Source: Spirochaetota bacterium
GTDB taxonomy: Bacteria; Spirochaetota; GWE2-31-10
Reading direction: 5' to 3'
DNA length: 15,978 nt
Assembly (NCBI GenBank): GCA_022361115.1
Contig: JAKSBL010000332.1
Coordinates: forward strand, 1 to 15,978
Positions 1,169 to 15,978 of this stretch are shown piece by piece; within the stretch, counting starts at the first letter, position 1, and every line of letters starts with the position of its first letter. The notes under the pieces were generated by a model. It was not told where the DNA came from. It searched no databases and saw nothing but the letters and a program-made list of their open reading frames with translations. Both the position numbers and the translations under genes were made by a program.

Positions 1169-1501
1169 ATGGCAGTTAATCCATTAGATCTGCAAACAAA
1201 TTTTTTACAAATGTCCAATGTTGGAAAACAACAGGCATTATCTAAAGAGTCGCAGGTATTAAGACAGGACCATGCCAGTGAAAATTTGAGTAAAACTAGT
1301 GAAAAGAATGCTGAAGACGTACCTGAAACCAAACAAATAGCAGAGAACAGCGGGAAAGTAAAAAACGACGGTAGTCGAAAACAAAACCAGGAAGAAGAAA
1401 AAAATAAGCAAAAAAAAGAGAAAGAAAAATCTGATCAGCAAAATAGCAATTTAGAAGCAAATCCTTCTGGAATTGGTCAAAACATAGATTTACTGGGATG
1501 A
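1169..1501 (+). CDS. Small YjfB-like putative motility protein (PF14070-like termini) with an internal Lys/Glu-rich low-complexity insert
   Basis: ATG at 1169 with AGGAAA 7 nt upstream, only 3 nt after the FapA stop. The N-terminus 'LQMSNVGKQQALSKESQVL' and C-terminus 'GIGQNIDLLG' resemble the conserved ends of the YjfB family, whose proteins are normally about 60 aa. The middle is KEKEK-rich. Terminator immediately downstream. Confidence 0.5.
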   Translation: MAVNPLDLQTNFLQMSNVGKQQALSKESQVLRQDHASENLSKTSEKNAEDVPETKQIAENSGKVKNDGSRKQNQEEEKNKQKKEKEKSDQQNSNLEANPSGIGQNIDLLG

Positions 1502-2007: not shown

Positions 2008-3615
2008 TTAAGTCAGTGAATGATGTAAGGTATGTTCATCCGAATATACCATATAATCCATATCCTGAAAAATAGTATCTCTTTTTTCACATTCTTCTAA
2101 ATAACCTATATCATAATGACCACTTTTTATCATTTCATATAAATCTAGAAATCTCTTGCTATGGCACTTAATTTTTTTTAAGGCATACTGAACTGTCGTA
2201 TTAGTCGTTAAGATAAAAGCCCAGCAAGATGTTTGTGCAATTTGTAATTCCCTGGCCATTTGATTCAGCAATCTTTTAAGTGTATGATCATTAGTATTTG
2301 GGTGCTGATTTGCCATTTCAACCATTTTATCAGCACATTCATGTAAATGTCGATATATCCAATCATTGGAATCATTTAGCCAAACTTCCATATAACCTTT
2401 GTTTCCCCAACTGGACATGGAAGGGGTAGAGACTTGGTTGACCGGATATTTTTTTAAATATTCTGTCGGTGTAATTAAATCAACCGTTTCAGATTGATAG
2501 ATCTCTCGGCAGAGGTAATTAATAAATTTAGGTCCTTCATACCACCAATGGCCAAAAAGTTCTGCATCATAAGGAGCTACGATAATTGGTTCCCGGTCCA
2601 TTATGGAACTGAGATATTCGACCTGTTTTTCCCGATTAAAACGAAAATTTGCTGCATGACTTTTTGCTTTAGCATCTGCCCATTCAGGGTGATAAGGTTG
2701 TTTTTCAACATTACGCCCGGTAATTCGATAATATTTAAAACCTGTCATCATACGAATACCATCATTATGAATATAAGGGCCAATGTAATCCAGAGGCAGG
2801 TCAAATCCAATATCCCGGTAAAATTCCCGATAATCCGAATCCCCTGGATAACCTTCTTCTGCTGACCAGACCTGTTTAGAGGACTCAACATCCCTGCCAA
2901 TAGCTGCTACCCCATTTCGACAGTATAGAGGAGCGAAAACACCATATTTAGGTCTTTTTTCTGCATATAATATGCCATGAGTATCAACAAAAAAGAAACG
3001 AATTCCCCACTTTTTTAAAAACTCTTCCAACCCAGGATAATAGGCACATTCTGCATTCCAAATACCTTTTGGATAACGGCCAAAATGTTTATAATAATTT
3101 TTGACTGCAGTTTCAATCTGGCCATTAATGGCATTATTATTGATATTCATTAATGGCATAAAGCCATGGGTAGCTCCACAGGTAATAATTTCTAATTTAC
3201 CCATGTCCTGGAAAGTCTTAAAACCCTTTAGTAAATTTTTCTGATATTTATTGACAAATACATCATAACAGGCAGTTAGATGATGGTGATACATTTCAGC
3301 TGTTGCATAAAAATCTGTATTGCGGGTTCGATTCAGTTCTTTATGAGAAAGTTCTATGAGTTTGTTTAATTTTGTTTCAAAACGATTTTGCAAAAGGTGA
3401 TCAGCAAACATTTCACATAGTGGAGGTGTTAAAGACATGGTTATTCGAAAATCAATTCCGTCATTTACCAAACTCTCATATGTTTGCAATAATGGGATGT
3501 AGGTTTCTATAATGGCTTCGTAAAACCAGTCTTCTTCCATAAAGGATTCATGTTCTGGATGACGAACAAATGGCAAGTGGGCATGAAGCATGAGACATAA
3601 ATAACCTTTAGACAT
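2008..3615 (-). CDS. GH57-family 1,4-α-glucan branching enzyme-type protein (GH57 catalytic domain + DUF1957-type C-terminal region)
   Basis: Real start is ATG at 3615 with GGGAGGAAAA immediately upstream. The track's TTG at 3636 would run through the RBS. GH57 signatures are the HxHxP motif 'LHAHLPF', the nucleophile motif 'WNAECAYYPG', and the acid/base motif 'YDAELFGHWWYEG'. Length about 535 aa. Confidence 0.85.
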   Translation of the reverse strand: MSKGYLCLMLHAHLPFVRHPEHESFMEEDWFYEAIIETYIPLLQTYESLVNDGIDFRITMSLTPPLCEMFADHLLQNRFETKLNKLIELSHKELNRTRNTDFYATAEMYHHHLTACYDVFVNKYQKNLLKGFKTFQDMGKLEIITCGATHGFMPLMNINNNAINGQIETAVKNYYKHFGRYPKGIWNAECAYYPGLEEFLKKWGIRFFFVDTHGILYAEKRPKYGVFAPLYCRNGVAAIGRDVESSKQVWSAEEGYPGDSDYREFYRDIGFDLPLDYIGPYIHNDGIRMMTGFKYYRITGRNVEKQPYHPEWADAKAKSHAANFRFNREKQVEYLSSIMDREPIIVAPYDAELFGHWWYEGPKFINYLCREIYQSETVDLITPTEYLKKYPVNQVSTPSMSSWGNKGYMEVWLNDSNDWIYRHLHECADKMVEMANQHPNTNDHTLKRLLNQMARELQIAQTSCWAFILTTNTTVQYALKKIKCHSKRFLDLYEMIKSGHYDIGYLEECEKRDTIFQDMDYMVYSDEHTLHHSLT

Positions 3616-3763
3616 TTTTCCTCCCTTATATTTCAAATGTGTACTTTTGTATTGTAAATTATTTCAATATAAATACAATCATTTTTTCTATTTATTCTTT
3701 TTTTGAATGGATACTTTGATCTTACTTAATTTTGTGTTTTCTGTAATCCAGTTTATATTAATT

Positions 3764-3798
3764 TAAAAAAATACCCTGCCTTTCGCACTGACAGGGTA
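3764..3798 (-). terminator. Rho-independent terminator downstream of the DUF4912 gene
   Basis: Stem taccctg (3772-3778) pairs with cagggta (3792-3798) around a 13-nt loop. On the minus-strand transcript it is followed by U7, the complement of aaaaaaa at 3764-3770. It lies 23 nt past the stop at 3821. Confidence 0.6.
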
Positions 3799-3820
3799 GA
3801 AAATATGTTTTTATTTATGT

Positions 3821-4600
3821 TTATTTACTGGATAAAGGTTTTACAGGTGAACTTACATTGCCACTGAACAAGCTTTCTTCTGTTACATTGCCGGCTAAAA
3901 ATTTCATGAGTTCCTGGCTGCCAATTTGTTGAAATAATTGATCAGCTCCTGAAGCTTTTAATATATTATTAAAATACTCATCACTCATCATCCATTCCTC
4001 ATCAATCTGGTCAGAAACATCGTCTCGAGGAGTGCTAGCTATATTTGATCGTAATACGGTTATAAATTGTCCATCTTTGATATAACCTAAATCTATAACA
4101 TAAGTGCGGTTAGGCTGTGGAAAGTTAATATACCAGTTATTAGCAGTGTTATTTATTTTAATATCAAAATGTGAATGAGGCTGTTCAGGATTATTGGTTC
4201 CAGTAATATCATACACCCGTAAATATTTTGTCTGGTTGTATAACTGATGTTCGTCCATTACAGCTTGGTTGGTTTCCCAGTAAACAAAACCCCAAAAAGG
4301 ATCTCTCACCATAAAAATCATTTTATTTTTACCATAATGACTTGGTAATGGAGGTGCATCTGAAAAAGTATTATACTGTGGTTGAGGCTGGGGTTGACTT
4401 AAAGCACTGCTACTTTGAGAACTGCTATCTTGAGAAAAATCTTTCTTTATTTCTTGAGCTGTTTCAGTAACTTTTTCAGCTGTTAAAATTAGCTGTATCA
4501 AGTCGGATTTTTTAGCTTTTGCAGTGAATTTCAGTTTTTTTTCATTAGCAATTGTTTTTAATTCTGCAACAGTTTTTTTCTTTAAATTACTCTCATTCAT
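3821..4600 (-). CDS. Rho_N-like N-terminal motif + DUF4912 domain protein
   Basis: ATG at 4600 with GGGAG 9 nt upstream. The N-terminus 'TVAELKTIANEKKLKF..KKSDLIQLIL' matches the Rho-termination-factor N-terminal (Rho_N/SAP-like) motif. It is followed by a Ser/Gln/Pro linker and a C-terminal region 'MIFMVRDPFWGFVYWE...' typical of DUF4912. Confidence 0.6.
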   Translation of the reverse strand: MNESNLKKKTVAELKTIANEKKLKFTAKAKKSDLIQLILTAEKVTETAQEIKKDFSQDSSSQSSSALSQPQPQPQYNTFSDAPPLPSHYGKNKMIFMVRDPFWGFVYWETNQAVMDEHQLYNQTKYLRVYDITGTNNPEQPHSHFDIKINNTANNWYINFPQPNRTYVIDLGYIKDGQFITVLRSNIASTPRDDVSDQIDEEWMMSDEYFNNILKASGADQLFQQIGSQELMKFLAGNVTEESLFSGNVSSPVKPLSSK

Positions 4601-4985: not shown

Positions 4986-6457
4986 TTAAAATTCTATCTT
5001 ACAGCTTATTTGATAATCCTGGTAAAATCCAACCATATTTGGACCAAACTCACCAGCTCGCCAATTTTTGTTAAGTAAATGCCAATCAAAAGGGTATTTT
5101 GCTGATATATTGATATTTAAAGCACTGATTGGTTCAACATCAAAGCTAATGTTTAATAATCCCGATTGATCTTCAATTCCAAATAAATAAGAGGTACTGA
5201 TATTTAAAAAATCATTAACAGTTACCCGCACCATTCCAAATAAATAGTTATGGCGTAAAAAATGCTGGGGCTTTATTGCTGTATTCATTACATAATATCT
5301 ATCCAATAAAGACATTTCTTCCCACTTTTGTGAGTCTGATGTATTATTATAAATACGATCCAATTCAAAATCATCATCTTCACTATTAAATGCCCAATCT
5401 AAAGCTCCCGGCCCATAAAAGAGATATTCAGCCAGAATATATACTTTTCCTTTGATGGTATAATCAAAACCAATGGCTGCCTCTAAACCTTCATAGCCAT
5501 AAAAATTCCGTTCATCATAAAATTGAGCTTCATAAAACCATTGCTGGTTAAAACGGTATATCATATCAATAAACAGAGCTATTTCAATATCTGCTTTTAA
5601 AGAAAAACCCACAATATGGGAGAAATCATTATTGGTATATTCTGGCAGATTATTTACACTAGGATCTGCAACGGTTCTGAATTCCATTTCTGGTAAAAAA
5701 AAACTGTATAAAAATTCAAAATTAATTTTTCCCAGATAAAAATTCGTAGCATTACCAAATTTCCAACCCCAACCTTGGCTATTGATTGGGTTTTCTGGTG
5801 CTAAAGCAAATAACTCTATCCTCCAGAAATCCATTGGATAAAATTTTGCCAATATACCCAATTGGCCATCTGGACGAGCACTAAGATTTATAGGATTACG
5901 AGGATTAAATAGATCAGTGGGACTGAAGGAATAACCAAATCCTCTGGCCACTCGAATCAGACCAATATCAATGTTAAAAAAATCATGCTGAATACTCATT
6001 TCCAAACGGTCTAATTCAAAAGCACCAATGTAAGTGGACTTATAATAAAAGGTATAGAGAAGAAACTAGTATTAGCCGAATTCCAGGCATGGGTAATACT
6101 TCCATCTAAAGATAAAGGATTATAATAAGAAGTTAAATCAGGAACAACGGAGTTCATAAATGAATAATATTGATACTGATATGTTTCAGTAGCTGTACCA
6201 GCTAACATGGTAAGGTTAAAAGAAGCCTGGAATTTCAAATATTGACCAATGTTAGCTTTAAAACGGAGATTTGTATAATTATCCCATCCCCAGCGAAATT
6301 CTCCATAGTCAGGATCATCTTCAAAAGTGAGAGCTTGCTGAAATTTAACAGTACTTTCATTGCTTCCATAAAATTTCAGTTTTGTTTTCACTGCAAATAG
6401 CTGACTGATTAATATTAAAACCAGGATGATGGATAATAATCTTTTAAACATAATCAT
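4986..6457 (-). pseudogene. Putative outer-membrane β-barrel protein gene split by a 1-nt frameshift (N-terminal part 6457..6011, C-terminal part 6005..4986). Either an authentic pseudogene or a homopolymer sequencing error.
   Basis: The 5' piece starts at ATG 6457 and encodes the signal peptide MIMFKRLLSIILVLILISQLFAV. The 3' piece has no signal peptide of its own, is rich in alternating aromatic/hydrophilic β-strand-like segments, and ends ...YQISCKIEF with a C-terminal Phe. The two frames are both open only across 6014-6063, around the run tataataaaagg (6041-6052). Joined, the product is about 490 aa. Confidence 0.6.
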
Positions 6458-6574: not shown

Positions 6575-7309
6575 TTATCTTTCTAAATTTCGCAGGGTAA
6601 ATGTATTAGAAGGAATTTTGATGTCTAATTCAATATTTTTCATAATAAATATGGTTTTAGAGTTTTTTCGTAATAAGTCATCAAAGATAATTTTGGTAGG
6701 AAAATTTTTACCTTTTATCTTTATAAAATCATCAATAATGGTTTCTCTTAATTTAACTCCTGATAGAGCAAATAATTCTTCCTTTATTGGAATAAAATCT
6801 TCTTTATCAACCCACATCATCCGTTTAGGGTAGGCTACTGTTTTCCGTTTTGCATTAAGTTCCAAAACCCAAACTGGCCGTCCATTTAAGGTGGTTTCTT
6901 TTACTATTTTTGCATTATACTGATTCGCTAAAGAATCATTGTTCTCTGACATATCTTCATAAGACATATCAGATCCCATCATGGATTCTTTTAACATATG
7001 TCCGGTAATGGGCATGATCTCTTCTAAGTCTTCTGTATAGACATAAATTTTACCATCTTTTTTTAGATATTTTGTTCCTTCATCATCAGAATTGGTGAAT
7101 TCCAGGAACATGTTTTCTTCACCTTCAAAGTACCCGTAAAAAGTTTTAACAATTTCTTTTCCTGAAATTTCAATAATCATTTCACCAGTATATTTACTGG
7201 ATTCTGATGTTTGGTTATTATCCACCCGATCTAAAATTTCGGTTGTATCAATAGCAAACGTAGAAAATGCCGTCCCCAGGATTAAAATGAATATCATTAT
7301 TCTTCTCAT
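6575..7309 (-). CDS. LolA-like periplasmic protein ('outer membrane lipoprotein-sorting protein' family, PF17131-like), with signal peptide
   Basis: ATG 7309 with AAAGGAGATAAT upstream. Signal peptide MRRIMIFILILGTAFSTFA. Length about 244 aa. Motifs such as 'TFYGYFEGEENMFLEF', 'KDGKIYVY' and 'RPVWVLEL' are consistent with the open β-barrel LolA-like fold. It is adjacent to the FtsX-type ABC genes. Confidence 0.5.
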   Translation of the reverse strand: MRRIMIFILILGTAFSTFAIDTTEILDRVDNNQTSESSKYTGEMIIEISGKEIVKTFYGYFEGEENMFLEFTNSDDEGTKYLKKDGKIYVYTEDLEEIMPITGHMLKESMMGSDMSYEDMSENNDSLANQYNAKIVKETTLNGRPVWVLELNAKRKTVAYPKRMMWVDKEDFIPIKEELFALSGVKLRETIIDDFIKIKGKNFPTKIIFDDLLRKNSKTIFIMKNIELDIKIPSNTFTLRNLER

Positions 7310-7547
7310 ATTATCTCCTTTAATATATAAAATTCAAAATATATATAAATTTAGTTTAATTCAATTTAAAATTAAAGTTCACATAAAATCACTAAAAGGT
7401 CACGGAGGAACACAAAACGAGTGTTGTTTATTTGAGCTAAAAAATCTTTAAAGCTGCTCTGATAACTAAAGGTTCTGTTAACTTGCTTCAGTTTTCTATT
7501 TTTAGTGTTCATTTGTGTCTTTCCGTGCCTTTTTGTGATCATTTTCT

Positions 7548-9194
7548 TTACCTTCTCAAAGCTTCCACTGGTTCAATAAATGCTGATTTTAGTGAGGGAA
7601 AAATGGTACAACAGGATGATATTACAACTCCGAACAAAAATCCGTATAATAGGTAAAATGGTGAAAACTTAATAAAAATCGTATTTGCAACTGGGAATTC
7701 TACTCCTCCTGTCATTGCTAAAATATCAATGGGTACATAGGAAAGTATCAGTGAGAGGACACCTCCGATAAAGGTACCTGCGATGGACCCAAAAAAACTT
7801 AAGAGTATGGCTTCCAGGAAAAAAACCATGATAATTTCAAAACGGGACATCCCTAGAGCTCCCATCATGCCAATTTCCTTAATCCTTTCATGAATGACCA
7901 TAATAACTGTATTCACAATCAAAAATGATGCTACAATAATAAACACTCCATAAACAATAGCGTAAATGGTTTCCGCCATTTTCATCATTGCCATGAAAGT
8001 GTGAGAAGCCAGTTCTCTGATAAAGATATCCTCTTGATGGTTTAAGGCAGCAATTTTTTTTGTAACTGCTTTATATTCCTCAGGTTTATCCAGGTATACA
8101 TAAATAGCTTGAGTCTGTCCTTTTAAAGATGCCAGGCTTTGTACTCTTTCAAAGGGAAGCAAGATATAATAGCCGTCATAAGAAACATAATCAAAATCAA
8201 AAACCCCAACTACTCGAGGATTGTAAAATCTATCCGAATAGGTACTGGAGATCATTTTCATGGGAATACTCGGCAAAGCTGCTTTTTGTACGATATACAT
8301 GATTTCTTCTTTATCTGATGCAGTGATATTCGGATTTAGTTGATAGAAGTTATTTTCATATAGAGTATAGTATTGTTCAAATGTTGATTTAGCAATGATG
8401 CTGTTTTCCAAACTGATCATTAAGTTACTGGATTTACTAACTTTTTCTGGCAATTTGGTAACTTCTAAATTGATAAAATTATCCAGTAATTGCAGGTTAT
8501 CATTTTCTTCAATAATATCTGCAACAACATACAGGCCATGGCCATTTTTAGAATAATATTTATCCAAAAGAGTATTCATCTCTGAACTAAACATGTCTTT
8601 CCACCACTGCATTTCATACTCTTCAACCTGTCTGGGAATAATCCCCAGTTTTTTGGCAATGTTGATTCCTACAACAGCTTCATTGGCATACCGGGTTTTT
8701 GATTTTTTTTCAGGAAAACGTCCAATGACCAAACCATTACTTTTATTCTTGAGATTATAATCATTGATTCGAGTTTCGTCTGGCATAGCCAGTTCTTTTT
8801 CAATATCAACTCCCCAAACAATAGCATGTTTGATCAGGTTGCTGGTTAAGGTTGCATAAGATGTTATTCTTGGAAAAACTGCTTTCACTCCTTCAATAGA
8901 ATCAATCTCTGCTAAATAATTATCCAGATCTCCATTAGGGGGAGTAATTGGATATTGCACCGGAAAAAAATCTTCATTTGTTTTAAAATCTTCTGTAACT
9001 AATGAAATATCCCCTGTTTCAAAGGTTTTAACAATTGACTCCATACTGCCAATCATACCATTGATATAAGAAATCATGGCAATAATAAAGAATACCGCCA
9101 TAGCAATGGCAAAGATACAGAGAACCGATCTTCTCCTGTTACGGTTTATATTTCTTAAGGCAATGGTGAATAGATAACCTAATCCATTTTGCAT
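7548..9194 (-). CDS. FtsX/MacB-type ABC transporter permease, the third and divergent copy, with an unusually large extracytoplasmic domain of roughly 370 aa
   Basis: Preferred start is ATG at 9194 with AGGAGGTGAttaaa upstream. The track's 9203 is a GTG. N-terminal TM segment 'SVLCIFAIAMAVFFIIAMISYI' is followed by a long soluble region, then three C-terminal TM segments containing the FtsX motif region 'ERIKEIGMMGALGMSRFEIIMVFFLEA'. Confidence 0.8.
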   Translation of the reverse strand: MQNGLGYLFTIALRNINRNRRRSVLCIFAIAMAVFFIIAMISYINGMIGSMESIVKTFETGDISLVTEDFKTNEDFFPVQYPITPPNGDLDNYLAEIDSIEGVKAVFPRITSYATLTSNLIKHAIVWGVDIEKELAMPDETRINDYNLKNKSNGLVIGRFPEKKSKTRYANEAVVGINIAKKLGIIPRQVEEYEMQWWKDMFSSEMNTLLDKYYSKNGHGLYVVADIIEENDNLQLLDNFINLEVTKLPEKVSKSSNLMISLENSIIAKSTFEQYYTLYENNFYQLNPNITASDKEEIMYIVQKAALPSIPMKMISSTYSDRFYNPRVVGVFDFDYVSYDGYYILLPFERVQSLASLKGQTQAIYVYLDKPEEYKAVTKKIAALNHQEDIFIRELASHTFMAMMKMAETIYAIVYGVFIIVASFLIVNTVIMVIHERIKEIGMMGALGMSRFEIIMVFFLEAILLSFFGSIAGTFIGGVLSLILSYVPIDILAMTGGVEFPVANTIFIKFSPFYLLYGFLFGVVISSCCTIFPSLKSAFIEPVEALRR

Positions 9195-9245
9195 TTTAAT
9201 CACCTCCTATAAATGCTAATTTATATAATTCAGGCATTAATGGGT

Positions 9246-10553
9246 TTATTCAAACCTTAATGCATCTGAGACTGCAATTTTTAAAGCTTTTTTCACTGGA
9301 ATCAAAGCCATTAATCCGGCAACTAAAACAGAGCCGATAAAGGATCCGGCTATCATTCCATAATTCCAGGCAGAACGGGTAATTCCGGTAACCCGGTATC
9401 CAAATCCATCTTCAAAACCTTCCTCCAGCATTGCTGTTAAATCTATGCCAATTGGTATCATGTAAAAGTAATTAAATAGAGAAGCTGTGATTAAGCCCAG
9501 GGCTCCGCCGATTAAGCCGATTAGCATAGATTCATAAATGTAGAGCCGGGTAACCTGTCCGTCAGTTAAGCCCAGGGCCCGAACCATACCGATTTCTTTT
9601 GTCCGTTCCAGAACTGCCATGAGCATGGTGTTGGCGATTCCGGCTATGGCTAAGATCATTAGAAATCCAATGATTACATAAGTACCGTACGTATCACCAG
9701 CAGCCATAGCTAAAAAGTCTTTGGCATCTTCTTCCCAGCTGACCAGAGTTAAATGATCAGGTAAGGGTTCTGCCATATTGGCTAAAATTGCTTCTGGAGT
9801 TTCTTTTTTTCCTGGTAAATCAGTACTAAGTGCTCCCAGTTTTCGGATGCAAAGTTCTGAAACATGGCCTTGTAAAAGAATTCCCATTTCATCCTGTAAA
9901 ATATCTAATGGCAGCAAACCCAGCTTTCCATTAATAATAGGATTTGGTGAGTTAATGATTCCTCCGACAATCAAATCGATTACCTGATGGGTGTGATGGA
10001 TTTTACCAATCTCATCTTTTGTATCAATAGTGGTTGTCAATCTTAAAGTATCTCCGACTCTTACATTAAGATCTTGGGCTCCCCGTACACCTAGTACAAT
10101 TTTAGATACGCCATTAGCAATAAAAGATCCGCTTTCAATAAAATCCTCAAATAAAAAGAGGTTTTTAGAGAGTTTTGGGTCAATTCCCCAGAATTGAAAG
10201 GGAACTTCCTGGTCTTTACTGATGAGAGTACCGGCAAAAGCAGCTTTTGGTGCAGCTTTATAGCCAGCTTGAGCTAACTGGTCAATAACGAACTGATACT
10301 GATCAAAACCTTCGTATAGTGGTAACTCATCTTTGTTTTCATAATAGGCTTTTGTATAAATCTTAGCTGCTCCAGTTTCAAAATTGACCAGATTTCTTTT
10401 TGAATCAATTTTCATTCCCAAAACCCAGGAATCCATCCAGATTAACAGAAATACAGAAATAAATATAGCAATGATGGTTATAATAGACTTAACTTTGTGT
10501 CTTCCCAGGTTTCGATAAGCCATATCAAGTAAATTTATCTTTGAGCTGCTCAT
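9246..10553 (-). CDS. LolC/LolE-like FtsX-family ABC transporter permease (paralog 2 of a tandem pair)
   Basis: Real start is ATG 10553 (MSSSKINLL...) with AGGAGA 7 nt upstream overlapping the upstream gene's TAG. The track start 10571 is a TTG inside the upstream gene. Topology is 1 TM + a periplasmic domain of about 230 aa + 3 TM. 'RTKEIGMVRALGLTDGQV' is the FtsX motif. Ends ...DALRFE. Blockwise similar to the upstream permease. Confidence 0.85.
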   Translation of the reverse strand: MSSSKINLLDMAYRNLGRHKVKSIITIIAIFISVFLLIWMDSWVLGMKIDSKRNLVNFETGAAKIYTKAYYENKDELPLYEGFDQYQFVIDQLAQAGYKAAPKAAFAGTLISKDQEVPFQFWGIDPKLSKNLFLFEDFIESGSFIANGVSKIVLGVRGAQDLNVRVGDTLRLTTTIDTKDEIGKIHHTHQVIDLIVGGIINSPNPIINGKLGLLPLDILQDEMGILLQGHVSELCIRKLGALSTDLPGKKETPEAILANMAEPLPDHLTLVSWEEDAKDFLAMAAGDTYGTYVIIGFLMILAIAGIANTMLMAVLERTKEIGMVRALGLTDGQVTRLYIYESMLIGLIGGALGLITASLFNYFYMIPIGIDLTAMLEEGFEDGFGYRVTGITRSAWNYGMIAGSFIGSVLVAGLMALIPVKKALKIAVSDALRFE

Positions 10554-10563
10554 TTTATATCTC

Positions 10564-11865
10564 CTATTCAAACCTCAGAGCATCGGTAATTGGTTTTTTG
10601 ATAACCTTTAAAGAGGGCATGATTGCTGCTAATACTGGGATTAACATGCCAAAAATCAATGCTGTGACATAAGATTTTATACTCCAGGCAGAGCGGAATA
10701 CTCCTGTTACCCGGTAACCAAAATCATCAATATTCATCTGTTCCATCATAAATGTATAATCAATACCATAGTTTACCATAAAATAATTTATGATTGTTCC
10801 GATAATCAAACCCATTAAAGTACCAAACAAGCCGATTAAGAATGCTTCATAGAGAAATGCTTTCAAGATTTCTCCATCCTTCATCCCTAAAGCTCTCAGC
10901 ATACCCAGTTCCTTGGTCCGTTCAAAGGTTGCCATGAGTATGGTATTGGAAATGCCTGCTGCAACAATGATAAAGAGAAACATCAAAATAACCCCAGTTC
11001 CCCCTTTTTTTGTACTTGAGATAGCCAGGTAATCTTTGGCATCCACTTCCCAGCTGACTAATATTAAATCACTAGGGATATCACCAATAGTGCTCAGAAT
11101 GACTTCTGGTTTTTCTTTTTCAGAAGGTAATTGGGTTAAAGCAGCATCTTTAATCCGTATGACTATTTCAGATACTGTTCCTTCTAACCGGATACCCATA
11201 TCATCCTGTAAAATATCTAATGGTATAAATCCGATATTGCCATTGGCATATGGATTGGGGGTATTGATGATTCCACTCACTTGTAAATCAATCACCTGAT
11301 GAGTGTGATGAACTTTTCCCCTTTCATCCTTTTTATCAATAGTCGTTGTTAACCTTAAAGAATCACCTTTTTTTACTTTGAGCCTTTTTGCCCCTTTTAC
11401 CCCTAGCATTATTTCAAATTTGTTTTCTTGTAAATACTGGCCTTCTTCTACATAGTTATGGTAACGGAAAACAGTTTTTTCCTGGTCCGGATCAATCCCG
11501 ATAAACATAAAAGGTATTTCATTATCTTTGCTGATCAGGGTTCCGGAAAAAACTGCATGGGGAGCTGCTGCATAACCCGCTTCATTGAGTTTCGTAATCA
11601 ATTTTTCATGATCCTTAAAACCTTCATATAAAGGACGTTCATCTTTTCTCTCAAAATAGACTTGAGAATAAATTTTTGCAGACCCCGTTTCAAAATTGAC
11701 TAAATTACGCTGAGATTCAATATCAGCACCATATAGCATACAATCAATATAAATATAGGCCATAATCCCAATAATAATGGCAGTCATGGTTAAGGCTGTT
11801 TTAACCTTATGCCTGCCAAGATTTCGGAAGGCAAAATAAATATAATTAGGCTTAGTCCGGCTCAT
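10564..11865 (-). CDS. LolC/LolE-like FtsX-family ABC transporter permease (paralog 1)
   Basis: ATG 11865 overlaps the ATPase stop (ATGA), with GAGGAAAG upstream. Same 1+3 TM topology with a periplasmic domain. 'RTKELGMLRALGMKDGEI'. C-terminus ...DALRFE. Confidence 0.85.
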   Translation of the reverse strand: MSRTKPNYIYFAFRNLGRHKVKTALTMTAIIIGIMAYIYIDCMLYGADIESQRNLVNFETGSAKIYSQVYFERKDERPLYEGFKDHEKLITKLNEAGYAAAPHAVFSGTLISKDNEIPFMFIGIDPDQEKTVFRYHNYVEEGQYLQENKFEIMLGVKGAKRLKVKKGDSLRLTTTIDKKDERGKVHHTHQVIDLQVSGIINTPNPYANGNIGFIPLDILQDDMGIRLEGTVSEIVIRIKDAALTQLPSEKEKPEVILSTIGDIPSDLILVSWEVDAKDYLAISSTKKGGTGVILMFLFIIVAAGISNTILMATFERTKELGMLRALGMKDGEILKAFLYEAFLIGLFGTLMGLIIGTIINYFMVNYGIDYTFMMEQMNIDDFGYRVTGVFRSAWSIKSYVTALIFGMLIPVLAAIMPSLKVIKKPITDALRFE

Positions 11866-12545
11866 TTTGTTCTTTCCTCAGTGATTTTGCCATCACGCAA
11901 GAAAATCAGCCTTCTTGCATAATCCATAACCATTTTGTCATGGGTAGAAAAAATAAAAGTTGCTTTTTCTTCTTGATTGAGTTTGAGCATAATTTCTAGT
12001 ATTTCTGCTCCAATTTTAGAATCAAGATTTGCTGTAGGTTCATCGGCCAGAATTAATTTTGGTTTTTTCACTAATGCTCTGGCAATAGCAACTCTCTGCT
12101 GCTGTCCTCCAGATAGTTCTTTGGGTCGTCTTTTTTCCATCCCTTCTAATCCGACCTCTTTAATCGCAGCATAAGACCTTTCTTTAATTTCACCAGGTGC
12201 TAAGCCTAAAAGGGTGAGAGGAAAAGATACATTTTCCAATATGGTTAATACTGGAATTAAATTATAGGCTTGAAAAACAAAGCCTATATTTTTTCTTCTT
12301 AAAATTGCCTGTTCTTTTTTGGATAAATGCTTTACTGTTTGTTCATTGAGCACAATGTCTCCATCAGTAATGGTATCTAAACAACCAATTAAATGAAGTA
12401 GGGTAGATTTACCACTCCCTGAAGGGCCAACAATGGCAGTAAATTCCCCTTCAGCAAAATCTGTGGTGACTCCCCGCAGAGCTTTGACCACTATTTTATT
12501 TAAATAGTAATCTTTAAATACATTATTTACTTGAACTGTCTTCAT
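11862..12545 (-). CDS. ABC transporter ATP-binding protein, LolD/MacB-NBD type
   Basis: Walker A GPSGSGKST, Q-loop, signature LSGGQQQRVAIARAL, Walker B LILADEPT, H-loop STHD. AGGAGG lies 6 nt upstream of ATG 12545. The start sits 23 nt inside the 3' end of the SPFH gene. Confidence 0.95.
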   Translation of the reverse strand: MKTVQVNNVFKDYYLNKIVVKALRGVTTDFAEGEFTAIVGPSGSGKSTLLHLIGCLDTITDGDIVLNEQTVKHLSKKEQAILRRKNIGFVFQAYNLIPVLTILENVSFPLTLLGLAPGEIKERSYAAIKEVGLEGMEKRRPKELSGGQQQRVAIARALVKKPKLILADEPTANLDSKIGAEILEIMLKLNQEEKATFIFSTHDKMVMDYARRLIFLRDGKITEERTK

Positions 12546-13644
12546 CTACAACCTCCTTTGTAGCTTTCTTTTTACCTTTATTTAAAAGTCCCAATGCTTC
12601 AATGCCAGGTAGACTCAAGGAGTTTACCGAATCAGTAATTGAATGTGGAACCATAAACATTGAATTGCCATTTTTTAAACCTTCCAGAAGAACATTCAGC
12701 TCCCTTAGTTTAAGAGCAACTTCATCATTTTGATAGATAGCCGAAGCTTCTTCCAGCTTTTTGGCTAATTCAATTTCTGCATCTCCCAGAATGATCCTGG
12801 ATTCTTTTTCTCTAATGGCCTGTGCTTTTTTTGTTAAAGCATTTTCTAATTGTTTTGGAAAAGTAATGTCTCTGATTTCAATGGACTGGATAGTTATTCC
12901 CCATTCTGTTGTTTTTTTATCAACAGCAACTCTGAGTTCTTCTCCTAACTCTTCCCGTTGAGCAATAAAAACTGCCAGGTCATTTTCTCCAATAGCATCT
13001 CTTAAGGCAGTTTGAGCACTTAAAATAACAGCATGCATGTAATTTTCAACTTCTAAAACAGCCTTTTCAGCATCCCAGACCATCCAGAAAGCAATGGCAT
13101 CGACATTGATTGGAACACTATCTTTGGTAATTGTCATTTCTGCAGCAAAATCAGTAGAACGAATCCGTAAATCAATAATTTTATTAATAGAATCACTAAA
13201 AGGAAGGATTATAAATAATCCTGGCCCTTTGATTTTGTGAAATTTTCCGAATCGGAGAATAATTGCTCGTTCCCATTCTTTAATGATTTGAAAAACAGGT
13301 GCTAGTAAGCTTCCGACACTAACGATGGCAGCATAGTAGAGAGCTGTATTTCCATTCCACCAGTAAAAATAGATAACTGCTGCTAAGTCAATAAAAATAA
13401 TGGTTTCCCAGCGCCCTTTTAAGGAAATGGTGAGTAATAATAAAACAGGAAATACCATTAAAGTGATTAAATCTGCTTCTTTTAAAACTCCTGCATTAAA
13501 ATAGTAATACAAAAAGCCTAAAACAATGAAAACAGAAAGAATAAAAATTGAGATAGGATTAATAGTAAAGTTTTTTTCCAGAGTCCTTTCAATGATATTC
13601 TTAATGAGATAGTTACTTTTACCTTGCGGTTTCATTTTAAACAT
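12523..13644 (-). CDS. SPFH/Band-7 (stomatin/prohibitin-like) membrane protein with an atypical N-terminal region of about four TM segments
   Basis: SPFH core runs from 'EWERAIILRFGKF...GPGLFIILPF' through 'SRIILGDAEIE' and a coiled-coil tail. The roughly 120 residues ahead of it contain four hydrophobic stretches. Start ATG 13644 overlaps the GntR stop (TAATG). Confidence 0.85.
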   Translation of the reverse strand: MFKMKPQGKSNYLIKNIIERTLEKNFTINPISIFILSVFIVLGFLYYYFNAGVLKEADLITLMVFPVLLLLTISLKGRWETIIFIDLAAVIYFYWWNGNTALYYAAIVSVGSLLAPVFQIIKEWERAIILRFGKFHKIKGPGLFIILPFSDSINKIIDLRIRSTDFAAEMTITKDSVPINVDAIAFWMVWDAEKAVLEVENYMHAVILSAQTALRDAIGENDLAVFIAQREELGEELRVAVDKKTTEWGITIQSIEIRDITFPKQLENALTKKAQAIREKESRIILGDAEIELAKKLEEASAIYQNDEVALKLRELNVLLEGLKNGNSMFMVPHSITDSVNSLSLPGIEALGLLNKGKKKATKEVVDEDSSSK

Positions 13645-14072
13645 TAGTTATTTTCCTCCACCCGATAGTTTCTTAAAAAATTAATCAGTTCTTCTTTCCC
13701 TAATCCATAAGGTTTTAACTGATTTAAACAGTTAACGACTATTTCCTCGATCTTTTGTTTTTTTTCAATTTCACTCATTTCAACTCTTTTTTCTGAAATA
13801 AAAGTTCCAGACCCAACCTGTGTATTGACCAAACCTCTGATTTCCAGTTCAGAATAAGCTTTAGCTACAGTATTGGGATTGACTTTGAGTTGAATGGCCA
13901 AAGACCGAACAGTCGGTAACTGATCACCGACTTTTAATTCGTCAGTGCTAATTGCCAGCTCAATTTGCTGGATAATTTGTCGGTATACAGGGATACCACT
14001 TTTGCTATCTAATACAAAATTAAACTCTTTCATTTCTTCCTTTGGTTCAGTTACTAATTGTACTATTGTCAT
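13644..14072 (-). CDS. GntR-family transcriptional regulator, YtrA-like subfamily (short C-terminal domain)
   Basis: Winged-HTH 'IPVYRQIIQQIELAISTDELKVGDQLPTVRSLAIQLKVNPNTVAKAYSELEIRGLV'. Total 142 aa, the size of the YtrA subclass. First gene of the ABC cluster. No Shine-Dalgarno upstream, consistent with the leaderless promoter in the next feature. Confidence 0.85.
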   Translation of the reverse strand: MTIVQLVTEPKEEMKEFNFVLDSKSGIPVYRQIIQQIELAISTDELKVGDQLPTVRSLAIQLKVNPNTVAKAYSELEIRGLVNTQVGSGTFISEKRVEMSEIEKKQKIEEIVVNCLNQLKPYGLGKEELINFLRNYRVEENN

Positions 14073-14204: not shown

Positions 14205-14233
14205 TTGACTCACTTTTAACAATTATCTATCAT
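14205..14233 (+). promoter_or_regulatory. Sigma-A-type promoter for the CheW-like multidomain gene
   Basis: TTGACT (14205-14210), then a 17-nt spacer, then TATCAT (14228-14233), with 'aat' extending to 14236. AGGAT lies 7 nt before ATG 14318. An in-frame TAA stop at 14300-14302 sets the start. Confidence 0.35.
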
Positions 14234-14317: not shown

Positions 14318-15978
14318 ATGGAAGATATCTACATACTTCAATTTAATAATGATCAATATGCCATCCGAAAGAAAGAAATTATTGATATATTGGAAGCACA
14401 AGATGTTCGGGAATTTCCGCTGGCTAATCAGAATCAAGGGTTGTACTATGCTTTTATTAATGGCAAAATATCTTATTTTTATGACTTGTCCAAATTTTTA
14501 GGTTATTATGCATTTGATTTAACACAACCAGGTAAATTGATATTAGTAACTAAAAATAATGATATGCCTGGTTTTATTTTTAACGGGATCAGTAAACAGG
14601 TCTTAATTGATGAGTTTATTTCTATTCCTCCATTTCTTAAAAGTAGTTTGATTAACCAGGGAATCATATTAGATAATCAGATAATTCCAATAATCAATAT
14701 TAAAGATGGCTATCAGCAACTGCAATCAGATCAATATCAACCTCCTCAACTTGAGTATCACATAAATAAAATCGAAAAATTAAATCTAAAAAATATTAAG
14801 AAAATTATTTTTTACAAAACCGGAGAACATTCCTTTTGCATACCAGAGAATGTAATTGAAGACGCAAAAATGGTTATTAATCAAATTTCTCATGGGACAC
14901 TTTTTAATGAATGTATAAAGGGAATAACTTACTGTAAAGAACAAGTTATTCCAATTATTGATTTTTCTAAATTTTTAAAGTGTACTAATAATAATACAGA
15001 TCACTTATTTACATCAAAAGTCGGCACTCAAGTGTTTGCTTTTTCTGTTGAAACATATATTGAAGAAATTACCTTATCAAAAGGCCAATGTAAAAAGCTT
15101 CCATTATTGATTCAAACCGAATGGGTAAGCCATGCAGTGATTTATCAAAATGAAATCTTTCCTGTTTTCAATCCTCAAGCAATTTTAAAAAATATCAATG
15201 AGGAATTCAATTTTCAACCTTTTCTTGATCAATATCATACTTCATCCCCCTTTCCCAATCAGTTTTTAAAGGAAGAAATTGAATTATTGGAATTTGAGCT
15301 TGCAGGAAATGAATATAGTCTTCCTGAAATGGAAATAATTGATACTTTTGCAATGCAAAAATATTATCCCTTTCCAAATATGACCACTTTAATGATGGGT
15401 CTGACAGTTTATAAGAATGAATTTTTACCTGTATTAGATCTGGTGGGAAAAAAAAGAAATCTTCCTGATCATTTATCTGGTTATCAAATGATTGTGATTA
15501 AGAATGGAAATTTCAAAGCAGTAATTATTGCTGAGAAAATTATCGGTAAGAAAAAGATATCTTTAAATATGCAGCACCATCTGCCTATTAAACAGAGGTA
15601 TCCATTAATTTATGGGTGCTATATTGAAAAACATGTGAAGCTTATCCTGAATATTGAAGCGATAGCTGTCTACTATGATCAAGCTGATTATGATTATTTT
15701 TCCAAGTCATTTTCGCAACAAATCAGAAATATTGATGAACAAGTTGTTATTTTAGAAAAAAATAAAGAATCGACTCAAGCAGAAGAATCGACTCAAGCAG
15801 AAGAATCTATTCAAGCAGAAGAATCTATTCAAGTAGAAGAATCGGTTCAAGTAGAAGAATCGGTTCAAGTAGAAGAATCGGTTCAAGCAGAAGAATCTAT
15901 TGAAGCAGAAGAATCTATTGAAGCAGAAGAATCTATTGAAGCAGAAGAATCTATTGAAGCAGAAGAATCTATTGAAGC
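14318..15978 (+). CDS. Protein with about four tandem CheW-like domains followed by an acidic hexapeptide tandem-repeat region. 3'-truncated by the window edge, with 553 codons in window.
   Basis: Uninterrupted ORF from ATG 14318 to the window end. The best CheW-like block is 'LLEFELAGNEYSLPEMEIIDTFAMQKYYPFPNMTTLMMGLTVYKNEFLPVLDLVGKK'. Weaker repeats of the same pattern begin near residues 5, 165 and 250 ('...IIFYKTGEHSFCIPENV...KGITYCKEQVIPIIDFSKFL'). Confidence 0.55.
   Translation, partial: MEDIYILQFNNDQYAIRKKEIIDILEAQDVREFPLANQNQGLYYAFINGKISYFYDLSKFLGYYAFDLTQPGKLILVTKNNDMPGFIFNGISKQVLIDEFISIPPFLKSSLINQGIILDNQIIPIINIKDGYQQLQSDQYQPPQLEYHINKIEKLNLKNIKKIIFYKTGEHSFCIPENVIEDAKMVINQISHGTLFNECIKGITYCKEQVIPIIDFSKFLKCTNNNTDHLFTSKVGTQVFAFSVETYIEEITLSKGQCKKLPLLIQTEWVSHAVIYQNEIFPVFNPQAILKNINEEFNFQPFLDQYHTSSPFPNQFLKEEIELLEFELAGNEYSLPEMEIIDTFAMQKYYPFPNMTTLMMGLTVYKNEFLPVLDLVGKKRNLPDHLSGYQMIVIKNGNFKAVIIAEKIIGKKKISLNMQHHLPIKQRYPLIYGCYIEKHVKLILNIEAIAVYYDQADYDYFSKSFSQQIRNIDEQVVILEKNKESTQAEESTQAEESIQAEESIQVEESVQVEESVQVEESVQAEESIEAEESIEAEESIEAEESIEAEESIE
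15767..15978 (+). repeat. Perfect-period 18-bp tandem repeat of about 11.8 copies that continues beyond the window. In frame it encodes E-S-[T/I/V]-[Q/E]-[A/V]-E hexapeptides at the C-terminal part of the CheW-like protein.
   Basis: Units from 15767 in order: gaatcgactcaagcagaa x2, gaatctattcaagcagaa, gaatctattcaagtagaa, gaatcggttcaagtagaa x2, gaatcggttcaagcagaa, gaatctattgaagcagaa x4, then a partial unit. Variants sit in contiguous blocks. Confidence 0.95.

Follow-up and report, generated by a model that had tools for sequence, protein, structure and literature searches.

What would a spirochete do with a protein that strings several CheW-like domains together and then runs into an acidic repeat? 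This question was raised by the last gene of contig JAKSBL010000332.1, a 15,978-bp contig of a Spirochaetes metagenome-assembled genome (MAG) with a G+C content of 33%. The entire contig was analysed and is called the window below. The gene is a partial open reading frame (ORF) at 14318-15978 on the forward strand, with 553 codons and no stop, cut by the contig end. In our best reading of the sequence comparisons, it encodes the first 553 residues of a member of a separate protein family of uncultured Spirochaetota that has not yet been described. Comparison of the family sequences showed one architecture: three CheW-like domains (approximately 470 residues, predicted to be cytoplasmic), an acidic spacer, one transmembrane helix and a periplasmic LysM or OmpA-like domain. 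The architecture of the complete relatives suggests a scaffold that ties the chemoreceptor array to the cell wall.

The start codon is the ATG at 14318, and from there the frame stays open to the final base of the window (15978), a run of 553 codons. The N-terminus is secure: the same frame has a stop 5 codons before this ATG, and in the alignments the first residue of the protein matches the first residue of every homologue. Because the window is the whole contig, the gene was cut by the assembly break and its C-terminus was not assembled. The break falls within an 18-nt tandem repeat, and tandem repeats are a typical stopping place of short-read assemblies. Peptide-pattern and exact-DNA scans of the genome collection returned no 3' extension of the gene. 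A metagenome scan returned only relatives, and searching for the neighbouring GntR protein by exact match did not extend the contig either.

The Pfam model PF01584 (CheW) matched the whole protein with 87.5 bits over three stretches. Each third of the protein was also scanned separately against the gathering cut-off of 23.5 bits. Domain 1 (residues 8-129; 14339-14704, forward strand) scored 26.7 bits with E 4.6e-6 over profile positions 6-131 of 138. Domain 2 (residues 164-292; 14807-15193, forward strand) scored 32.5 bits with E 7.8e-8 over positions 3-136 of 138, and domain 3 (residues 323-449; 15284-15664, forward strand) scored 37.5 bits with E 2.2e-9. All three domains individually exceeded the cut-off, and each covered nearly the full 138-position model. 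An earlier sequence-only reading of this DNA had proposed about four tandem CheW-like domains and a per-domain PF01584 scan to check them. The scan confirmed the tandem arrangement but not the number, which is exactly three, also in the homologues. A fourth CheW domain was ruled out: the stretch between domain 3 and the repeats is only approximately 25 residues long, and a fourth domain is missing from all homologues as well. The same reading had seen no kinase or receiver domain in the visible part of more than 550 residues, and Pfam likewise found no kinase, Hpt or receiver domain in the 553 residues. Neither the window protein nor any of the scanned homologues gave a Response_reg match, and the protein does not fall under the definition of CheV, in which a CheW-like domain is joined to a receiver domain. 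When the family profile was compared with solved CheW chains, domain 2 aligned to 2qdl with 62 bits and domain 1 aligned to E. coli CheW 2ho9 with 41 bits.

An AlphaFold2 model of residues 1-478 was built on a 6-sequence alignment, with a predicted local distance difference test score (pLDDT) of 70 and a predicted template-modelling score of 0.66. The top 18 Foldseek matches of this model in the PDB were all CheW or CheA-P5 chains (E 1.6e-7 to 1.5e-4). They included 6s1k, 2ch4, 2qdl, 4jpb and 8c5v, with a target TM-score of up to 0.76. In the model, the N-terminal module thus has the CheW/CheA-P5 fold, with two intertwined beta-barrel subdomains. The three domains of the window protein are barely alike, with pairwise BLAST E values of 0.009-0.3, and each is orthologous to the domain at the same position throughout the family. 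This weak similarity indicates that the triplication is old, and a recent internal duplication was ruled out by it.

A word-indexed search of 5.8 billion proteins returned only three relatives, at approximately 28% identity. A profile search returned two further relatives, P0005 among them, and the metagenome scan gave 12 additional loci. When 1.84 billion cluster representatives were searched exhaustively with a HMMER profile, 224 proteins were returned at E<=1e-30. The closest relative is P0005, an OmpA-like form with 37% identity over 462 residues (E 1e-101); the other listed members share 24-28% identity with the window protein. The best 150 of the 224 were essentially all colinear over profile positions 1-473, which cover the three domains, nearly all from their first residues, and were 700-1627 residues long unless truncated. 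The organism names attached to members are 'Spirochaetota bacterium' MAGs only, and UniRef was the source of none of the approximately 25 clusters with listed sources. NCBIfam has no model for the whole architecture and gave only sub-threshold CheW, LysM and OmpA matches. Automatic names in IMG, such as 'chemotaxis signal transduction protein/LysM repeat protein', indicate that annotation pipelines see both halves.

In 152 family sequences taken from the word-indexed, profile and HMMER searches, the C-terminal domain was LysM in 126 and OmpA-like in 4. The other 22 were mostly short, and nearly all stop inside the spacer or in frameshifted sequence. The curated Pfam models for LysM (PF01476) or OmpA (PF00691) confirmed the assignment on 9 of the 152 and on 8 of 12 others. 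All 129 complete relatives analysed have a peptidoglycan-binding C-terminus, which is LysM in 125 and OmpA-like in the remaining four (P0005, P0072, P0080 and P0113). LysM and OmpA-like domains have unrelated folds, and both bind peptidoglycan. That one can replace the other within the family argues that the C-terminus is selected for wall binding. Of the 129 complete proteins, 128 contain a 19-residue segment that is strongly hydrophobic. Lys and Arg were richer before than after this helix in 98 proteins, and the opposite was seen in 14. The enrichment ahead of the helix is the positive-inside signature and predicts an N-in/C-out topology. The wall-binding domain begins a median of 59 residues past the helix. 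Two members showed irregular C-termini. In P0001 (L003 2323-2526), LysM lies in a separate overlapping downstream ORF, probably through a frameshift or an assembly error. In the C-terminal 120 residues of the protein translated from ORF 378-3308 of L011, the segment before and into LysM is duplicated, so that KDPVVVRKPVPAQ...VVYNVKKGDTLYKI occurs twice.

The spacer between domain 3 and the helix is of low complexity and 119-715 residues long in the 129 complete proteins (median 256, the misparsed P0009 excepted). It contains 23% Asp and Glu against 9% Lys and Arg, and its net charge is negative in 123 of the 129. The spacers cannot be aligned among members and often carry unrelated tandem repeats: ESIEAE in the window protein, an SPEVKE-type repeat (SP/KE-rich) in P0005 and ERLEA in P0101. 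Since the spacers differ in both sequence and repeat type, selection appears to act on length and charge instead of sequence. In the window, the 18-nt tandem repeat at 15765-15978 (forward strand) encodes acidic hexapeptides of the pattern ES[TIV][QE][AV]E. Tandem Repeats Finder reported 11.9 copies with 95% matches and a score of 302. The last 75 residues of the window protein include 29 Glu and 2 Lys. About 70 residues of the acidic region are visible ahead of the contig end, and their composition fits the family spacer. The sequence-only reading had described an acidic tandem-repeat tail; the repeat is real, but homology makes it a linker, very probably the start of the cytoplasmic spacer and not the end of the protein. 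By comparison with its relatives, the window protein is expected to continue with a helix and an OmpA-like or LysM domain. The membrane and cell-wall tether, found in every complete relative, would be the more interesting feature of the family, and in this gene it lies beyond the window. Successive repeat units shift stepwise (STQAE, SIQAE, SIQVE, SVQVE, SVQAE, SIEAE). Such changes are as expected for recent slippage or duplication, and the copy number may vary in the population.

Tandem CheW proteins are already known. The CheW.II, CheW.III and CheW.IV architectures have been catalogued and are approximately 1-3% as abundant as CheW with a single domain; CheW.III, which by definition contains nothing detectable besides its CheW domains, is associated with F9 systems (Vass et al., 10.1101/2022.05.07.491035). 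2xCheW and 3xCheW are also listed as known by Muok et al., who refer to 30 Pfam architectures that are undescribed (PMC10653840). The sole case studied by experiment is VC1402, a concatenated triple CheW that makes up the baseplates of the F9 cytoplasmic arrays of V. cholerae (PMC7534058). The earlier claim that tandem CheW without a kinase is unusual was thus overstated. The multivalent scaffold proposed with it does fit the domain content and the fold, since the protein carries kinase-less tandem CheW modules, but there are three modules and not four. LysM or OmpA fusions to CheW are not mentioned in the accessible parts of Vass et al. (10.1101/2022.05.07.491035) and Muok et al. (PMC10653840), and no description of a membrane- or wall-anchored CheW was found in the searchable literature. 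Three CheW domains in one chain with such a spacer, a membrane helix and a wall anchor therefore appear to be undescribed there.

The family resembles several known systems in part. It shares with CheW.III and VC1402 the three CheW-like domains per chain and the lack of kinase, Hpt and receiver domains, and a baseplate location would be expected for it. VC1402, which was compared by its description only, belongs to an F9 che cluster and to membrane-free double-layer arrays, whereas the present family is encoded alone, outside che clusters, and adds the acidic spacer, the transmembrane helix and the periplasmic wall-binding domain. The polar landmark HubP has one transmembrane helix and an acidic, repeat-rich cytoplasmic region, recruits ParC and ParP, and positions chemotaxis arrays. 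Its periplasmic LysM is necessary and sufficient for polar targeting, and its acidic cytosolic repeats recruit the partners (PMC8789113). The LysM domain, the single helix and the large acidic repeat-rich cytoplasmic region are thus common to HubP/FimV and to the present family. The order is reversed, with LysM N-terminal in HubP and C-terminal here. The family also lacks a TPR and the C-terminal region of FimV, and sequence homology could not be detected; the likeness is one of analogy and does not place the family among the HubP/FimV proteins. HubP contacts the arrays indirectly, by way of ParC and ParP, whereas the present family carries its CheW-like modules in the chain itself.

The CheW-like domain of ParP joins the array and tethers it to the anchor, according to the summary of Ringgaard 2014 given in PMC8789113, and the present family shares the CheW-like domain with it and would use it in the same way. 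ParP differs in being soluble, with one CheW-like domain and dependence on ParC and HubP, and the window protein has no ParC-binding region. CheWS, a CheW-CheR-like protein of Treponema denticola and other spirochetes, is another spirochete-specific non-canonical CheW fusion, and it occupies ring positions in the array (10.1101/2020.03.11.986844; PMC10653840). In contrast to the present family, CheWS has a single CheW domain and a soluble CheR-like domain that binds S-adenosylmethionine, with no membrane or wall anchor. The OmpA-like members P0005, P0072, P0080 and P0113 share with MotB and Pal the single helix and the C-terminal OmpA-like domain. In NCBIfam they show sub-threshold similarity to the MotB, MotY and Pal models, none of which reaches the curated cut-off. 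They lack the stator plug and the channel helix, and their cytoplasmic part is entirely different. By analogy, the family may be regarded as a CheW scaffold combined with a HubP/MotB-style anchor. The targeting by the LysM of HubP, the tethering by ParP and the baseplates built by a triple CheW are precedents that support a wall-tethered array scaffold.

We believe that the family is a CheW-type scaffold of the baseplate, which the long acidic spacer would connect to the inner membrane and to the cell wall, and we hold this whole explanation with slightly better than even confidence. Its two parts differ in strength. The architecture is highly probable, and the function is about evenly balanced. 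We infer that the partners of the CheW-like domains are array components of the CheA-P5/CheW ring layer and that the wall-binding domain immobilises the array. In the proposed mechanism, the three CheW-like domains would insert into or nucleate the CheA-P5/CheW baseplate, like a single CheW and the triple CheW of V. cholerae. The acidic spacer would run beside the receptor stalks from the baseplate back to the inner membrane, and the assembly would be pinned to the sacculus by the helix together with the wall-binding domain. This would fix the site of the array, prevent its drift and perhaps stabilise it. One polypeptide could do the work of the HubP-ParC-ParP chain of Vibrio. The distance between membrane and baseplate in cryo-electron tomography surveys is approximately 20-30 nm. 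A spacer of the minimum length of approximately 120 residues has a contour of more than 40 nm and could cover this distance.

The conservation of the CheW-like domains was examined by aligning 14 family sequences to E. coli CheW, of which residues 18-151 were verified by alignment; at approximately 15% identity this alignment is uncertain. The earlier reading had proposed to look for CheA- and receptor-contact residues in each repeat. Of the canonical CheW residues compared, Gly57 is mostly kept, Arg62 is absent from all three domains and Gly63 is variable. The Gly57 equivalent is kept in domains 2 and 3 of all 14 sequences and in domain 1 of 11. The position of Glu38 is Asp in domain 3 of 13 of the 14, and Gly99 is kept in domains 1 and 2. 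The canonical pattern of E. coli CheW (class F7), with Gly57, Gly63 and the Arg62-Glu38 salt bridge, was found in none of the 14 family sequences. Arg62 and Glu38 are near-invariant in class F7 only, and just two glycines are universal across F1 and F7 (Ortega et al., PMC3828127). The residue differences therefore mark divergence and are not proof of a loss of function. Columns conserved in at least 90% of the sequences number 20 in domain 3, 8 in domain 1 and 3 in domain 2. Domain 3 is clearly the most constrained and is the best candidate for a key interface.

Several results weigh against a wall-tethered array scaffold. Arg62 is missing from all three domains in 14 of 14 sequences, with Asp, Asn, Glu or Lys in its place. 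Gly63 is only partly kept (5, 9 and 10 of 14 in domains 1, 2 and 3), Gly57 of domain 1 is Tyr in the window protein, and Gly99 is lost in its domain 3. With such divergence at canonical residues, binding to CheA or to receptors is not assured. No relative adjoins cheA or cheY, and genes for methyl-accepting chemotaxis proteins (MCPs) lie within 10 kb of a family member in two loci only (L001 and L023). The structural model is only moderately confident, the C-terminus of the window protein lies beyond the contig end, and the family is known from sequence alone.

A part of these results would be expected if the protein were a landmark like HubP or FimV. In this case, the CheW-like domains would be repurposed as generic protein-binding modules and the acidic region would be a recruitment platform, so that the protein would mark the pole or the subpolar motor zone and recruit non-array partners. 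HubP is built of matching parts (LysM, one helix and acidic repeats), the CheW-like domains have lost canonical residues (Arg62 throughout, Gly63 variably), che genes are not linked, and FapA is encoded on the same contig. We consider this reading unlikely. The three domains still exceed the Pfam cut-off as CheW, the model matches CheW and P5 folds, and domain 3 is strongly conserved, since 14 of 14 sequences keep the Gly57 equivalent there and 13 of 14 are acidic where E. coli CheW has Glu38; no sequence similarity to FimV or HubP was found. The window protein could also be a soluble triple CheW of the CheW.III type found in F9 systems, a cytoplasmic multivalent coupler whose acidic repeat tail ends soon past the contig. 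Three CheW-like domains and nothing else are visible in the 553 residues, CheW.III proteins exist, and one of them builds cytoplasmic arrays. This is highly improbable in our view. The proteins that the window protein most resembles, and with which it is colinear, form a family in which every complete member analysed has a peptidoglycan-binding domain, and a clear helix precedes this domain in 128 of the 129. The 22 sequences without the domain nearly all break off in the spacer or in a frameshift, and the gene lies outside any F9-type che cluster.

A wall-binding domain attached to CheW-like modules could, by analogy with other CheW fusions, also work in the reverse direction. By way of the helix and the spacer, it would report the state of the envelope (strain, remodelling or muropeptides) to CheW-like domains seated in the array and so modulate CheA. 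CheW fusions such as CheWS and CheW-CZB can serve as input sites (PMC10653840), and in three related contigs the second gene upstream of the homologue encodes a peptidoglycan carboxypeptidase. That linkage is confined to one closely related contig group. A disordered spacer of 119-715 residues with unconstrained sequence would also be a poor conduit for conformational signals, and LysM and OmpA-like domains serve for binding and are not known to give a signalling output. We regard such an input device as quite improbable.

A more specific form of the tethered scaffold is a dedicated single-chain tether in uncultured spirochetes, with CheW-like domains in the ring, a polyanionic spacer that passes between the receptor stalks and a LysM or OmpA-like wall bolt. 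We propose it tentatively, with somewhat less than even confidence. In a bolder version, wall strain would be fed into the array through this tether. The tether itself, if real, would be the first case of a chemosensory array joined physically and directly to the cell wall. Array positioning is understood in a few proteobacteria, through ParC/ParP/HubP, stochastic nucleation and TipN-type systems, and we know of no mechanism described in spirochetes. Spirochete arrays lie close to the subpolar motors. A single-chain tether would explain how arrays stay fixed at subpolar sites in a cytoplasmic cylinder that is constantly twisted by periplasmic flagella. A family of approximately 200 sequence clusters that fuses CheW-like modules to a wall anchor is a testable candidate for array positioning. 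Such a family would also broaden the developing picture in which CheW is a 'hub' and not a passive adaptor. The spacer provides a natural experiment on length, which never falls below approximately 120 residues. Because all members come from metagenomes, a genetically tractable host is still to be found.

The genomic context gives little guidance to function. The triple-CheW gene is a separate unit, transcribed divergently from an operon of GntR, SPFH and ABC transporter genes. A sigma-70-like promoter candidate (TTGACT, 17 nt, TATCAT; 14205-14233, forward strand) lies in the 245-nt divergent intergenic region upstream of it; the assignment is a consensus match only, at 10 of 12 positions. No che gene was found in the window or beside the homologues examined. 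The relatives showed no surrounding chemotaxis or flagellar operon, and their neighbours vary from contig to contig. The sequence-only reading had considered a motility or chemotaxis role plausible from FapA and YjfB genes at the other end of the window. FapA was confirmed at 236-1165 (Pfam, 241 bits), as a protein of 309 residues with the beta-solenoid domain only, but YjfB had no meaningful Pfam match. The ORF after FapA (1169-1501, forward strand; 110 residues, rich in Lys, Glu and Gln) gave only chance-level Pfam matches (E 0.57-0.98) and no motility family. FapA lies 13 kb from the triple-CheW gene across unrelated genes, and the synteny is not conserved. The argument from these neighbours is weak, since the triple-CheW gene is a separate divergent unit and no relative lies in a che or flagellar operon.

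Among the relatives, some neighbourhoods were observed repeatedly or contained signalling genes. In three related contigs, a D-Ala-D-Ala carboxypeptidase (Peptidase_S11) gene and an ORF of 167 residues of no known function lie directly upstream of the homologue (Peptidase_S11 at L018 8356-9315, L020 6419-7315 and L021 4995-5954). This neighbourhood may be a peptidoglycan-related linkage within this one closely related group. Upstream of P0003, L001 1-9818 encodes an MCP with a periplasmic-binding-protein sensor, a stand-alone receiver, a sigma-54 activator and a hybrid histidine kinase. L023 has a lone MCP gene near the family member, and no other context had a signalling gene close to a member of the family.

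Elsewhere in the window, the genes of a small GntR-family regulator (13644-14072, reverse strand) and an SPFH/Band-7 membrane protein (12523-13644, reverse strand) share a stop/start junction. A perfect 12/12 sigma-70 consensus at 14107-14079 (reverse strand) precedes this operon and is divergent from the triple-CheW gene. The regions 6575-12545 (reverse strand) and 4986-6457 hold the genes of a LolA-like protein, three consecutive permeases with FtsX/MacB-periplasmic domains and one ABC ATPase, together with two ORFs downstream of them. The LolA-like, permease and ATPase genes apparently form an operon, and three permease paralogues for one ATPase is unusual. The two downstream ORFs (339 and 148 residues) had no Pfam match, and the shorter one has a signal-peptide-like N-terminus. 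At 2008-4600 (reverse strand), a GH57 branching-enzyme gene is paired with the gene of a DUF4912 protein that bears a Rho_N/HeH-like N-terminus. This pair is kept at L019 9164-11608, where the GH57 identity is 80% and all other synteny is lost. Since L019 shares only this pair, no ortholog of the triple-CheW gene could be reached by synteny, and the GH57-DUF4912 pair is the part of the window that is conserved there.

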